Shown here: one piece after another, positions 6,232-10,616 of the stretch
Layout: each line of letters opens with the position of its first letter
Position numbering within the stretch: the first letter of the stretch is position 1
Sequence record: MT129654.1
Length of the DNA: 64,000 nucleotides
DNA from: Escherichia phage MN04
Strand: one strand, 5' to 3'
Notes under the pieces: generated by a model
Databases searched by the model: none
Told to the model about the DNA's origin: nothing
Seen by the model: the letters and a program-made list of their open reading frames with translations, nothing else
Made by a program: the position numbers and the translations under genes

Positions 6232-6783
6232 ATGAAATTTAATTATAATCCCAAATACACACCGAACCCGGCGGCCAAATTGATTGATTTTGATGTTTTA
6301 AGCACTTATGCAGCCCCTATTGAACCATTAGAAATTAAGGAAACCACTATGACTACTCAGACTATCGAAATCGGTAAAACCTACAAACTGGTTGAACCTG
6401 AAATTAAAACTAAGGCCTTGATTTCTGGTTATAAAACTCTGACTGATGTTTTTGGCGAAGGCGAATTTATTGTTGAAGAATTCGCTAAAAGTGAGTGGTT
6501 TGACAAATCTTACGTCATCCACGGTCGCCGGTTAGATAATAACAAAATAGAGAAAAACCTGGTTTATGAAGATGAATTTGGGCTTTTCCGTGAAGTCGGA
6601 GTCGAACAAGACCCTACAGACCTGTTGTGTGCTGCTGTGGCTATCCGTCGTCCTTTTGATAATCCTATCTGTGGTTGGGTAACAGACCAGTGGATTGAAG
6701 ATGGTGTTGAACTCCTGAACGTTGTACATGCTGGTGATTTTAGCGTAGTACCTCGTAGTGCAGTGGTTAATGTATTGAATTAA
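6232..6783 (+). CDS. Hypothetical protein, paralog A of a tandem pair
   Basis: 183 aa; C-terminal block GWVTDQWIEDGVELLNVVHAGDFSVVP shared with the next ORF. Confidence 0.5.
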   Translation: MKFNYNPKYTPNPAAKLIDFDVLSTYAAPIEPLEIKETTMTTQTIEIGKTYKLVEPEIKTKALISGYKTLTDVFGEGEFIVEEFAKSEWFDKSYVIHGRRLDNNKIEKNLVYEDEFGLFREVGVEQDPTDLLCAAVAIRRPFDNPICGWVTDQWIEDGVELLNVVHAGDFSVVPRSAVVNVLN

Positions 6784-6856: not shown

Positions 6857-7408
6857 ATGATTACTATCGGTGAAATTGTTCGTGTATCCAAAGAATCTCG
6901 CTCAAAAGCCGCAGGTCGTTTTGTTGAAGTTGCAGGTATTCGTACCAATTTAGTAGGTGGAATTAAAGAAGTTAAAGTGCGTATTATTCCTAAAAATGGC
7001 CAGACCGAAACCGAATTTGCTTATGTTCGCCCTAAATTTTTAAAATCGACTGAATTTACCGGATACATCGCTCCTGTAGTTGAAGAAGTTGAATCCCATG
7101 ATGGGTATGTATGTGAAAGCAATGATATTCGCGGCGTAGTAGCTCAAGACGTTGAAACTATTGACCAATCTCATGTCGGCGTTGATTTCAAATGGAAATT
7201 AGGTCGAGGAGTGTGTTTTAATACTCCTAAACCGTTCAAATATGTTGACGAACCTTTTGGTACTTACGAAACCAGTAGCATGTCTGGTTACATCACAGAC
7301 CAGTGGGTTGAAGGTGGCGTTAAGCTCTATAACATCGTGTTCCTTGGAACCTTTAAGGTTGTTCCTGAAAGCTTTATTGTTGAATATGCTAACATTCACC
7401 GTGCATAA
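6857..7408 (+). CDS. Hypothetical protein, paralog B of a tandem pair
   Basis: 183 aa; C-terminal block GYITDQWVEGGVKLYNIVFLGTFKVVP matches preceding ORF. Confidence 0.5.
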   Translation: MITIGEIVRVSKESRSKAAGRFVEVAGIRTNLVGGIKEVKVRIIPKNGQTETEFAYVRPKFLKSTEFTGYIAPVVEEVESHDGYVCESNDIRGVVAQDVETIDQSHVGVDFKWKLGRGVCFNTPKPFKYVDEPFGTYETSSMSGYITDQWVEGGVKLYNIVFLGTFKVVPESFIVEYANIHRA

Positions 7409-7569
7409 AGTTTAAAAAACAGTATACAATACGGTAGGGTAGTGATAAGATTACCCTATCAAAACAAATGAGTGAAATGGAGAATAAAAATGTTTGCACC
7501 TTATATTATGATTACAGTTATCGTTATCTGTCTGTATCTTTTAATTAAAGCTTGTTAAGGAGATTTAAA

Positions 7570-7791
7570 ATGACTACTAAAATCACTGCAAACTCGACTC
7601 GTGAAGAATTTGAAGATGTTCTGTTCAACCCTGATTTAATCGTGGTTCAAAAGGAACATTCTGATACGTTTTCTCATTTATCGTCGGTTTATGTATACGA
7701 AAATCAAGGTGATAAAAACCCTATGTATGCAGTGTTCCGTGAAATCACTGCTGAAGGCACCGACTTCTGGAAGGAAACTTACAATGCTTAA
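7570..7791 (+). CDS. Hypothetical small protein (cef position)
   Basis: 73-aa ORF from ATG 7570 with SD taaggag upstream; T4 Cef is 71 aa at the equivalent position. Confidence 0.35.
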   Translation: MTTKITANSTREEFEDVLFNPDLIVVQKEHSDTFSHLSSVYVYENQGDKNPMYAVFREITAEGTDFWKETYNA

Positions 7792-8287
7792 TCAAGAACT
7801 TGAATTTGAAAAAGGTAAATGGTACTATTTTAAAGATGACGCGGCAGAAGCTGAATTCCGTAAGCTGAATTCCCATAATATTAGGACTCCTAATAATTCT
7901 TCTATAGCAGATATTATTGTCAATTCTGAAGGTTTTTGCCCTGTTAGATTAGCGGCAGGTTATGTGATGAACGTGGACTTGGCTTATGGTGATAACATTG
8001 ATATGGTTTTATATCCAAGCGAGCGTAAATTCTTTACGGAAATGGTTGTAGTTGACAGTGAAGACGAATGGGCCGAAGATGGTTTTTCTGAAGAAGACCG
8101 GTCTGAACCGAGTGATTTCCCTTTGACTAAAATCACTATGGAAATGGGTTTAGTTGGCGGTGAAGACCAGTCTGAAGACGCAGCCCCATATGAACCGAGT
8201 GATTTCCCTTTGACTAAAATCACTATCTCCAATAATTCTGAAGCCTGGACTGTTTACCGGATGTTGAAAGCCCACTTTAAGGAATAA
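7784..8287 (+). CDS. Hypothetical acidic protein with internal tandem duplication (goF position)
   Basis: 167-aa ORF from ATG 7784; contains duplicated peptide EPSDFPLTKIT encoded by a perfect 35-bp direct repeat. Confidence 0.4.
   Translation: MLNQELEFEKGKWYYFKDDAAEAEFRKLNSHNIRTPNNSSIADIIVNSEGFCPVRLAAGYVMNVDLAYGDNIDMVLYPSERKFFTEMVVVDSEDEWAEDGFSEEDRSEPSDFPLTKITMEMGLVGGEDQSEDAAPYEPSDFPLTKITISNNSEAWTVYRMLKAHFKE
8105..8226 (+). repeat. Intragenic direct repeat (2 x 35 bp perfect, period 87 bp)
   Basis: gaaccgagtgatttccctttgactaaaatcactat at 8105-8139 and 8192-8226. Confidence 0.85.
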
Positions 8288-8288
8288 T

Positions 8289-8465
8289 ATGCCACTTTAT
8301 GATTACAAATGCCAATCCGAAGACTGTGCAAAAGAATACGAAAAAATCAAGAAAATCTCTGAAAGAGATAATGATGTTTGCCCTGATTGCCATCGGTTGG
8401 CTGTTCGGTTAGTTTCAGCTCCTAAACATGTTAACGGCGGGTTCTATGACCTGCTAACTAAGTGA
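8289..8465 (+). CDS. Small zinc-ribbon protein (CxxC ... CPxC)
   Basis: 58-aa ORF below track cutoff; YKCQSEDC ... CPDCHR, FmdB-like zinc-ribbon spacing. Confidence 0.5.
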   Translation: MPLYDYKCQSEDCAKEYEKIKKISERDNDVCPDCHRLAVRLVSAPKHVNGGFYDLLTK

Positions 8466-8471
8466 GAAATT

Positions 8472-8732
8472 ATGAAATATGTTAATCGTTCTATTGCAGC
8501 TCTTGTACTAGCAGTTTCGTTGGTTGGTTGTACTGATGCTGATAATGCCACCCGTGTATTGGATGCAAATGGCTACGAACAAATCCAAATCACAGGATAC
8601 AACTTATTTGGCTGTTCTGAAGATGATTTCCAACGTACAGGCTTTATTGCTGTAGGGCCGACAGGTAAAAGGGTTGAAGGAACAGTTTGTTCTGGGTTAT
8701 TCTTTAAAAAGTCAACCATTCGGTTTGATTAA
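8472..8732 (+). CDS. Putative lipoprotein
   Basis: 86 aa; signal peptide with lipobox LVGC (MKYVNRSIAALVLAVSLVGCTD). Confidence 0.5.
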   Translation: MKYVNRSIAALVLAVSLVGCTDADNATRVLDANGYEQIQITGYNLFGCSEDDFQRTGFIAVGPTGKRVEGTVCSGLFFKKSTIRFD

Positions 8733-8750
8733 GGGCTTCGGCCCTTTTAT
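8733..8750 (+). terminator. Rho-independent terminator
   Basis: gggcttcggccc hairpin followed by ttttat. Confidence 0.6.
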
Positions 8751-8798
8751 GCTTTAAGTGAAATGGGATAATATTCTCCTACTACATGAGGAAATAAC

Positions 8799-10616
8799 AT
8801 GATTAAGAATGAAATTAAAGTACTGTCCGACATTGAACATATCAAAAAACGTAGTGGGATGTATATTGGCTCAAGTGCTAATGAAGCTCACGGTCGATTC
8901 CTGTTTGGTAATTTTACCCAGGTGAACTATGTTCCAGGGCTAGTTAAATTAATTGACGAAATCATTGATAACTCTGTCGATGAAGCTATTCGTACCAATT
9001 TTAAATTTGCAAATAAAATCGATGTTCAAATTAAGAATAATCAGGTTTCAGTTTCTGATAATGGCCGTGGTATTCCTCAAGCAATGGTTACCGACCAAAA
9101 CGGTGAACAAATTCCGGGCCCTGTAGCTGCATGGACTATTCCAAAGGCCGGTGGTAACTTTGGAGATGACGCCGAGCGTAAAACAGGCGGCATGAACGGT
9201 GTTGGTAGTAGTTTAACTAATATCTTCTCTGTTTTGTTCACAGGCATCACCTCTGATGGTGAGAATGAGATTACTGTTAACTGTTCCAACGGAATGGAAA
9301 ACAAAGGTTGGTCTACTAAGAAATCTAAAGGTAAGGGTACTTCGGTTATATTCACCCCAGACTTTAACCATTTCGAAGAAAATAGTCTGTCCCAAATTTA
9401 TCTGGATATTACATTAGACCGTCTTCAAACACTGGCCGTAATTTATCCAGATATCCAATTTACTTTTAATGGTAAAAAAGTAGATGGCAACTTTAAAAAG
9501 TATGCTAAGCAATTTGGTGAAGACTTTGTAATCCAAGAAACCGATAATGTTTCGATGGCATTTACTCCTTCTCCGGACGGGTTCCGTCAACTGACGTATG
9601 TAAACAATATCCATACTAAGAACGGTGGTCACCACGTTGAATGTGTGTTTGATGATATCTGTGAGCACCTTCTGCCTGGTATTAAAAAGAAATATAAAGG
9701 AATCGAAGTAACTAAGGCTCGTGTTAAAGAATGCCTTACTATGGTAATGTTCATTCGTGATATGAGCAATATGCGTTTTGATTCGCAGACTAAAGAGCGA
9801 TTAACCTCTCCGTTTGGCGAGATTCGTAACCATATCCAAATTGATGCTAAGAAAATTGCAACGGCTATTCTTAAGGTCGATGGGTTGATTATGCCTATCG
9901 TCGAAGCCGCTTTAGCACGTAAACTCGCTGCCGAAAAAGCCGCCGAAACAAAAGCTGCTAAGAAAGCTTTGAAAGCCAAGGTCCATAAGCATATTAAAGC
10001 CAATATGTATGGCAAAGATGCTGATACGACTTTATTCCTTACGGAAGGTGATTCTGCAATGGGTCCTTTCATTGAAGTTCGTAATAAAGACCTCCAAGGT
10101 GGTTATCCGTTACGCGGAAAGGTTATGAATACCTGGGGTATGACTGCTGCTGATATCATGAAGAACAAAGAATTGTTTGATATCTGTGCAATCACTGGAC
10201 TGGTTATTGGTGAACCTGCAGATAAAACCAACTATCGTAATATCGCTATCATGACTGACGCCGATGTGGATGGTACTGGTTCGATTTATCCTTCGTTATT
10301 AGCTTTCTTTAGTCAGTGGCCGGAATTGTTTGAACAGGGACGAATTCGTTTCTGTAAGACTCCTGTAATCATTGCTCAGGTTGGTAAAGAACAGGAATGG
10401 TTCTATGATGTACCTAGTTATACCAAAGCTAAGGACTCTCTACCAAAACATTCCATTCGATATATTAAAGGTTTAGGTTCTCTTGAGAAAGCTGAATATC
10501 GTCGAATGATTCAAGACCCTAAATTTGATGTGGTTCAATTACCTGAAGATTGGAAAGAACAGTTCGAAATGCTCCTAGGGAATGACCCACAGCTGCGTAA
10601 GGCTTGGATGTCATAA
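8799..10616 (+). CDS. 39: DNA topoisomerase II large (ATPase) subunit, single fused 39/60-type ORF
   Basis: 605 aa; GHKL ATPase motif DNGRGIP, Toprim EGDSA; uninterrupted, unlike T4 where the C-terminal part is the separate gene 60. Confidence 0.9.
   Translation: MIKNEIKVLSDIEHIKKRSGMYIGSSANEAHGRFLFGNFTQVNYVPGLVKLIDEIIDNSVDEAIRTNFKFANKIDVQIKNNQVSVSDNGRGIPQAMVTDQNGEQIPGPVAAWTIPKAGGNFGDDAERKTGGMNGVGSSLTNIFSVLFTGITSDGENEITVNCSNGMENKGWSTKKSKGKGTSVIFTPDFNHFEENSLSQIYLDITLDRLQTLAVIYPDIQFTFNGKKVDGNFKKYAKQFGEDFVIQETDNVSMAFTPSPDGFRQLTYVNNIHTKNGGHHVECVFDDICEHLLPGIKKKYKGIEVTKARVKECLTMVMFIRDMSNMRFDSQTKERLTSPFGEIRNHIQIDAKKIATAILKVDGLIMPIVEAALARKLAAEKAAETKAAKKALKAKVHKHIKANMYGKDADTTLFLTEGDSAMGPFIEVRNKDLQGGYPLRGKVMNTWGMTAADIMKNKELFDICAITGLVIGEPADKTNYRNIAIMTDADVDGTGSIYPSLLAFFSQWPELFEQGRIRFCKTPVIIAQVGKEQEWFYDVPSYTKAKDSLPKHSIRYIKGLGSLEKAEYRRMIQDPKFDVVQLPEDWKEQFEMLLGNDPQLRKAWMS

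Follow-up and report, generated by a model that had tools for sequence, protein, structure and literature searches.

A probably old in-frame module duplication in the goF gene of Escherichia phage MN04

The best-described counterpart of the gene studied here is goF (comC-alpha) of phage T4. T4 GoF is composed of an LSm-like/SH3-like N-terminal domain, a flexible linker, and a C-terminal domain, and the protein is abundant and dispensable, with goF deletion and amber mutants growing normally (Kim et al. 2025, PMC12152347). The D25Y mutation stabilises gene 41 mRNA, growth on rho (nusD/tabC) hosts is restored in the D25Y and G84R mutants, and GoF pull-downs recovered mainly GoF itself (PMC12152347). 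In an evolution experiment, a T4 goF allele that had lost 21 bp of its acidic region in frame reached a frequency of 72%, with one-step growth unchanged (Chin et al. 2022, PMC9271167). Here, we analysed 64,000 nucleotides of Escherichia phage MN04 (sequence record MT129654.1; this whole stretch is called the window below), in which the gene in the goF position carries a direct repeat. Our results indicate that the repeat belongs to an in-frame module duplication that is probably old and was probably tolerated as a near-neutral expansion of the linker.

The phage is JS98-like and of the T4 type, in the genus Dhakavirus, and the best matches of the MN04 stretch over 12 kb are about 95-96% identical. 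The goF gene occupies positions 7784 to 8287 on the plus strand and encodes 167 amino acids plus a stop codon. Its start overlaps the stop of the upstream neighbour cef (7570 to 7791, plus strand; PF24050 T4_Cef at 1.5e-33) by 8 nt (ATGCTTAA). The mechanical open reading frame begins earlier, at 7691, but the ATG at 7784 is used by all orthologues and is the start supported by homology. Downstream lie the genes for the 39.2 zinc-ribbon protein (8289 to 8465, plus strand; PF09723 at 2.3e-11), 39.1 (8472 to 8732; phrog_902), and gene 39, a topoisomerase placed at 8799 to 10616 by the list of open reading frames, while two MotB-like genes (6232 to 6783 and 6857 to 7408) precede cef. The order motB-like, cef, goF, 39.2, 39.1, gene 39 is the annotated order in JS98, IME08, JS10, and T4, and the gene in the same position is labelled goF or "(m)RNA metabolism modulator" in JS98, IME08, dhaeg, JS10, and T4.

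The GoF family has no Pfam or NCBIfam model; the Pfam search gave only a sub-threshold match to Choline_bind_1, and a PDB sequence search with MN04 GoF gave no match. The family phrog_622 is matched by the MN04 protein at an E value of 5.6e-24 and by T4 GoF at 4.6e-38. With tblastn, residues 6-167 of the MN04 protein aligned with many Tequatrovirus goF genes at 25-31% identity, and the alignment with T4 goF itself was confined to the last 29 residues, at 59% identity. Because of the synteny and annotations, the shared phrog_622, the full-length tblastn matches, and the conserved C-terminal peptide, the gene in the goF position is a true GoF/ComC-alpha orthologue of Dhakavirus. The genome position, the homology, the flexible acidic linker, and the C-terminal module that mark the GoF family are all found in MN04.

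AlphaFold2, run on a 39-sequence alignment, gave a model of moderate quality overall (mean pLDDT of 70, pTM of 0.50). The predicted N-terminal folded domain covers about residues 1-90 (7784 to 8053, plus strand) and is modelled confidently, with a pLDDT of 85-93 over residues 11-90, strands at 13-16, 51-57, 60-66, 71-76, and 84-87, and helices in addition. Residues 94-139 are predicted to be disordered (pLDDT below 50), and a C-terminal helix is predicted at residues 151-164 (pLDDT of about 60-72). A Foldseek search of BFVD matched the model to GoF of phage VR7 (2.4e-12) and weakly to T4 MotB.1 (P39415; E value of 0.017), and nothing significant was found against the PDB, where the best E value was 2.3 and the SH3-like NdhS and FeoA appeared at low probability only. 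An LSm-like/SH3-like assignment of the N-terminal domain would thus be indirectly supported, through the resemblance of the MN04 model to models of the GoF family, the LSm label itself coming from PMC12152347. The protein is acidic (pI of 4.3; 34 D+E versus 15 K+R), and the linker at residues 88-140 is strongly so, with 18 D+E versus 2 K+R.

The conserved C-terminal module lies at 8192 to 8284 on the plus strand (EPSDFPLTKITISNNSEAWTVYRMLKAHFKE) and contains the predicted helix; the end of the protein, …DFPLTKITISNNSEAWTVYRMLKAHFKE, was compared with the end of T4 GoF. In a 39-row alignment of MN04 with 38 of the 39 cluster representatives described below, 29 columns are invariant, and most of them fall inside this module. 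The F, P, and T of the FPLTKIT motif are invariant and its L, K, I, and T nearly so, with T4 having FPVMKVT. On the DNA level, the module is 92-98% identical across the Dhakavirus loci of the EPS[DE]F type, including those with an N-terminal domain below 50% identity, and only 79% identical to four loci of the EITAF type.

The goF gene of MN04 contains a perfect in-frame direct repeat that had been pointed out in an earlier note on this DNA, at the position and in the acidic protein described there. The period of 87 bp, or 29 codons from start to start, also stands, but the repeat is 36 bp long, one more than the 35 bp given in that note. Copy 1 (8104 to 8139, plus strand) encodes (S)EPSDFPLTKIT, and copy 2 (8191 to 8226, plus strand) encodes (Y)EPSDFPLTKIT and forms the left edge of the conserved C-terminal module, so that residues 108-118 and residues 137-147 both read EPSDFPLTKIT. 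Both motif copies sit in the acidic segment predicted to be disordered, between the N-terminal domain and the C-terminal helix. A chance origin of the repeat is excluded because the longest exact repeat in 500 codon shuffles of goF was at most 15 nt and no match of the 24-mer core is expected in shuffles of the 64-kb window.

The perfect repeat is not the whole duplication, since similarity extends beyond it to a second pair of homologous blocks. A repeat search showed a wider similarity of 50 nt at 88%. The block at 8039 to 8065 on the plus strand (GAAATGGTTGTAGTTGACAGTGAAGAC, encoding EMVVVDSED) and the block at 8141 to 8167 on the same strand (GAAATGGGTTTAGTTGGCGGTGAAGAC, encoding EMGLVGGED) are identical at 23 of 27 positions, in the same frame, and 102 nt apart, and they are the sole pair on the plus strand of the window to match at 21/27 or better. 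The stretch between the two perfect copies, ATGGAAATGGGTTTAGTTGGCGGTGAAGAC (MEMGLVGGED), matches the first of these blocks and is hence not novel sequence. The alternative, ungapped pairing of EMGLVGG with EDGFSED of the ancestral linker, which was the choice of tblastn, gives only about 12/21 on the DNA level by hand count compared to 23/27 and was rejected.

With the blocks placed in this way, two units can be delimited. Unit A (8036 to 8137, plus strand; TEMVVVDSEDEWAEDGFSEEDRSEPSDFPLTKIT) comprises the 34 codons from T85 to T118 and reads TEMVVVDSEDEW...EPSDFPLTKIT, its start falling inside the last predicted beta-strand of the N-terminal domain (FTEM; strand 84-87). Unit B (8138 to 8224, plus strand; MEMGLVGGEDQSEDAAPYEPSDFPLTKIT) comprises the 29 codons from M119 to T147, and its 5' block is a diverged copy of the strand end that is now a Gly-rich linker. 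Over its full length, unit B can be aligned with the 31-codon units, each present once, of phages FB (TEMVVVDSEDEDRSEDAAPFEPSDFPLTKIT) and fDHCT2, and a tblastn search with the junction peptide aligned FFTEMVVVDSEDEDRSEDAAPF... of FB to unit B. The 36-bp repeat is thus the best-kept part of a larger head-to-tail module duplication of about 30 codons. The units are not near-identical over their whole length: only 36 nt are identical, the 5' blocks agree at 23 of 27 positions with all 4 changes in these 27 nt being nonsynonymous, and indels of 18, 3, and 30+6 nt separate the rest. It fits with this that Tandem Repeats Finder reported nothing for positions 7000-9000 at a minimum score of 30, since the units differ by indels in the middle and are alike only at their ends. 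No role is likely for the ATG codons at the junction (M119/M121) as an internal translation start, as there is no Shine-Dalgarno-like purine run upstream.

The common Dhakavirus allele of 145 amino acids (JS98, dhaeg, UP19, IME08, WG01, QL01, and others) is 93-98% identical to MN04 GoF in the aligned residues and has the same flanks, but it contains a single unit. Compared to six close orthologues, MN04 goF has a net insertion of 66 bp (22 codons) and not of 87 bp, and the balance closes as +87 for unit B and -18 and -3 within unit A. Where units or alleles differ in length, the short repeats GAAGAC and TCTGAA flank the difference: unit A has an 18-nt deletion (TCTGAA…TCTGAA), a 30-nt segment is present or absent between GAAGAC repeats, and the copy number of GAAGAC itself changes. 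The junction (…ATCACTA|TGGAAATG…) and the start of the unit (TTTACGGAAATG) share only a TA dinucleotide.

The earlier note had suggested comparing repeat copy number among orthologues, and it does vary. A single FP(L/V)T motif was found in 39/39 cluster representatives drawn from 5.8 billion clusters and in every fetched orthologue locus except that of phage vB_EcoM_005, which, like MN04, has two; the case in which all orthologues carry two diverged copies is thus not what is seen. The commonest allele has 145 amino acids in all 15 listed members of its 17-member cluster, bar two longer start calls. The exact 167-residue product of MN04 was not found among 153 billion gene positions, and scans of INPHARED and IMG/VR found the junction only in vB_EcoM_005. 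In JGI metagenomes, a degenerate scan for the junction matched only L016, by chance and in an unrelated GC-rich open reading frame (…EKITMEMGFVS…).

The vB_EcoM_005 gene product gp125 (YP_010100659.1, "hypothetical protein") has 69 amino acids (MSNEAKFEPSDFPLTKITMEMGLVGSEDEDQSEDAAPSEPSDFPLTKITISNNSEAWTVYQMLKAHFKE). It shares with MN04 the junction KIT|MEMGLVG(S/G)ED, two FPLTKIT motifs, and the C-terminal module, but its N-terminal domain and first linker are deleted, with MSNEAKFE joined to PSDF..., so that the reading frame begins MSNEAKFEPSDFPLTKITMEMGLVGSEDEDQSEDAAPSEPSDFPLTKITISNN..., and its repeat period is 93 bp compared to 87 bp in MN04. The adjacent cef gene also has an in-frame deletion, which MN04 does not share. 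Within unit B, the 5' block carries the same four derived substitutions in both phages (ACG to ATG, GTT to GGT, GTA to TTA, and GAC to GGC). The segment that they share is 91.6% identical and the flanking 39.2 gene 93.8%, and the two core copies of vB_EcoM_005 differ from each other at two synonymous sites. Because vB_EcoM_005 has the same junction and the four derived changes in a segment that is about 8% diverged, the duplication appears to have a single, older origin that precedes the split between the MN04 and vB_EcoM_005 alleles. The existence of this second, diverged two-copy allele argues for stable inheritance, and the two-module goF would be a length variant, rare but passed on by descent, of a linker that is prone to indels.

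Most probably, the duplication is a tolerated, near-neutral expansion of the linker that added a second conserved motif; we infer neutrality because orthologues have linkers of anywhere between 18 and 34 residues and because the 21-bp deletion in T4 left growth unchanged. A module of about 30 codons, comprising the end of the last N-terminal strand, the whole acidic linker, and the 11 residues with which the C-terminal module opens (EPSDFPLTKIT), would have been duplicated head to tail. Since the junction shares only TA with the start of the unit, the event was presumably an illegitimate one, by replication slippage or unequal exchange. The 5' end of unit B, freed from the fold, could then have drifted from EMVVVDS to the glycine-rich EMGLVGG, and slippage at the short GAAGAC and TCTGAA repeats would have shortened both linkers. 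The net change is +29 codons for unit B and minus 6 and minus 1 for unit A, or +22 codons compared to the 145-residue allele. The 36-bp core would have stayed identical since that sequence hardly changes anywhere in the genus. In the resulting protein, one FPLTKIT would lie at the normal distance from the N-terminal domain, and a longer acidic tether would place the complete module of motif and helix 29 residues farther away. Measured from the invariant FF to FP(L/V)T, this distance is 18-34 residues in orthologues, while the first and second motifs of MN04 lie at 27 and 56 residues.

An adaptive origin is unlikely but is the alternative that fares best. If EPSDFPLTKIT is an autonomous short linear motif for binding, two copies could make GoF bivalent, or raise its avidity, towards a partner from the host or the phage, and both the near-invariance of the motif residues in the 39-row alignment and the canonical distance of copy A from the N-terminal domain would fit such a role. 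Copy A is also intact in both two-copy alleles, and the differences, between copy A of MN04 and of vB_EcoM_005 as well as within vB_EcoM_005, are synonymous only, which hints at selection on copy A in what is a tiny sample. In addition, vB_EcoM_005 retains a reading frame that consists of just two motifs, a linker, and the helix. However, only 2 of well over 50 alleles have two copies and none has three, and the duplication left out the ISNN-EAW helix that the motif normally adjoins. No partner has emerged either, the T4 pull-downs having given mainly GoF itself (PMC12152347). We regard as similarly speculative, and slightly less probable, the broader idea that selection is strongest on the FPLTKIT-helix module, rather than on the LSm-like domain, and that this module binds a partner as an autonomous peptide, with the two-copy allele as a natural avidity variant and the 69-residue vB_EcoM_005 reading frame as a "CTD-only" variant. 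If this were true, both variants would offer a handle on the target of wild-type GoF.

There is also only a small chance that the duplication is recent and unstable, with copies gained and lost at appreciable frequency through homologous exchange between the two 36-bp stretches. In its favour, the 36 bp are perfectly identical, recombination is very active in T4-type phages, and T4 tandem duplications segregate. An 87-bp collapse would leave a product encoding …SEEDRSEPSDFPLTKITISNN…. A single-copy allele, P0002 (…FSEDEDQSEPSDFPLTKITISNN…), has the same 18-nt linker deletion as unit A and looks like such a collapse product of a two-copy allele; however, TCTGAA repeats border its deletion, and slippage may have produced it independently, so that P0002 could be either. 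Efficient recombination in T4 reportedly needs roughly 50 bp of homology, and 36 bp falls short of this. The earlier note took the perfect identity of the copies to suggest a recent duplication, which our results do not support: the remainder of the unit has diverged and gained indels, and the junction and derived changes are common to vB_EcoM_005 in a background that is only 92-96% identical. Moreover, the 35-mer is identical in five phages with a single copy (dhaeg, UP19, IME08, JS10, and Ec2-ASingh), JS10 keeping it even though its protein is only 43% identical overall, and the identity of the two copies therefore carries little information on age, being expected at any age. One-copy and two-copy alleles both occur within Dhakavirus, and no near-isogenic genome that could date the event was found, the nearest relative being only about 95-96% identical over 12 kb.

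It is very improbable that the repeat is a nucleic-acid element, such as a promoter, an RNA hairpin, or a regulatory site within the coding sequence, and this reading is largely refuted. Each copy does contain TTGACT and an 8-bp inverted repeat (AGTGATTT/AAATCACT), and the C-terminal DNA is unusually conserved, but a sigma-70 scan placed no site in the repeat and its total hits equalled the shuffled expectation. The hairpin is of low predicted stability (-5.9 to -8.6 kcal/mol, z of -1.4 to -2.0) and lacks covariation support, with 119/500 shuffles reaching the observed score and the pairs being broken in fDHCT2, L021, and T4, and the variation among orthologues is almost all synonymous, as constraint on the protein level predicts. 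The only terminator-like match near the repeat, at 8111-8098 on the minus strand, is a 5-pair stem inside the coding sequence and was discarded. An assembly or sequencing artefact, to which the absence of the exact 167-residue product from all collections searched might point, is the least credible explanation of all, as typical reads are longer than the repeat core, the duplication preserves the frame, the two units are not the same in sequence, and the independent GenBank genome vB_EcoM_005 has the same junction.

Taken as a tolerated linker expansion, the two-module goF matters little alone: it adds a rare natural allele to an early phage gene that is already known and not essential, and we found no description of it in the literature searched. 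Structurally, it is a minor variation within a hypervariable region, and a related form was already in GenBank, unremarked. It does illustrate how an acidic linker that is rich in short repeats generates in-frame length variants. Together, the two-motif allele, the vB_EcoM_005 reading frame devoid of the N-terminal domain, and the linkers of 18-34 residues point to the C-terminal module as the part of GoF under the tightest constraint, which makes this module a good bait in screens for interaction partners.

Compared to T4 GoF/ComC-alpha, which has 141 amino acids, the MN04 protein has the same place between cef and 39.2/39.1/39, the same phrog_622 assignment, and the same arrangement of an N-terminal beta domain, an acidic flexible linker, and a C-terminal FP(L/V)(T/M)K(I/V)T-NN-(E/Q)AW-YQMLKA(H/Y)FKE module. 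It differs in sequence, at about 25-31% identity to Tequatrovirus goF with T4 itself matching only in the C-terminal module, in its linker, which is of the E/D-S type and not EQ-rich, and in having two copies of linker and motif in 167 amino acids. The 21-bp deletion of T4 goF, which arose during gut-on-a-chip evolution (PMC9271167), is likewise a viable in-frame length change in the acidic region with no growth defect, but it is a laboratory deletion of 7 residues that involves no module duplication and leaves the C-terminal motif untouched. With Hfq there is a functional analogy only, as it has no sequence relationship to GoF and the Foldseek search against the PDB gave no significant match. 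The acidic tail of Hfq is autoinhibitory. The likeness lies in the combination of an LSm-type core with a disordered tail that has an acidic tip, and the N-terminal domain of GoF has itself been compared with Hfq (PMC12152347).

Judged by a sequence comparison of window 7784-8290 with JS10 (L008) and two further loci (L012 and L005), goF is mosaic within Dhakavirus. The N-domain and linker are hypervariable in the genus, with protein identity down to ~43% for JS10; the final 96 nt of goF are 97% identical between the window and JS10, and the downstream 39.2 gene is 99.4% identical. The N-domain appears to be an exchangeable cassette, with the conserved C-terminal coding block as its recombination boundary. 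Within the N-domain (…EAEFRKLNS…), a 12-nt direct repeat, AAGCTGAATTCC, occurs twice at 7848-7873, the copies lying out of frame and 14 nt apart; both are kept in close orthologues, and the repeat is a potential frameshift-slippage site.

In vB_EcoM_005 (L007; NC_055783.1, a Dhakavirus of 155 kb), cef and goF alike carry in-frame internal deletions (locus positions 770-1090). The cef gene is missing ~33 residues, with the joint at …NPDLI|EITAEG…, and goF is missing its entire N-terminal domain, leaving a 69-aa ORF that consists of two FPLTKIT motifs and the predicted C-terminal helix, with T(T/C)TGAA microhomology at the deletion joint. The goF allele on a Logan contig of ERR10432879 (L035, 1501-1920) is single-copy and 139 aa long, and its linker has an 18-nt deletion, flanked by TCTGAA, that is identical to the one in unit A of the window duplication. 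Either this allele is a collapsed two-copy allele or the slippage has recurred.

The 12-mer ACTAAAATCACT, encoding TKIT, has a third exact copy at the N terminus of cef (7576-7587), where 0.03 would be expected per window. The cef 5' end and the region upstream are a variant common to the window and UP19 (MTTKITAN…), whereas other Dhakaviruses start cef with MAKVTVN… (GCTAAAGTTACT). The third copy is probably a coincidental similarity involving a related tetrapeptide.

Further upstream lie two neighboring MotB-like genes of 183 aa each (6232-6783 and 6857-7408). The first belongs to phrog_2333, and its residues 44 to 127 weakly match the GoF family (phrog_622; E = 5e-4) in addition to a MotB C-terminal match. 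These paired matches are consistent with the LSm-like family that groups GoF with MotB.1 and Frd.2, as described by Kim et al. (2025, PMC12152347).

On the other side of goF, a GC-rich hairpin, AAGGGCTTCGGCCCTT (8731-8746), with a GNRA-like/UUCG-type loop and followed by a T-rich tail, lies immediately 3' of 39.1 and ahead of gene 39; it could be either a stabilizing stem-loop or a terminator-like element. Gene 39 (8799-10616) encodes the topoisomerase II large subunit. In T4, this subunit is divided into gp39 and gp60, whereas in the window it is present in the unsplit form, as a single protein of 605 aa.
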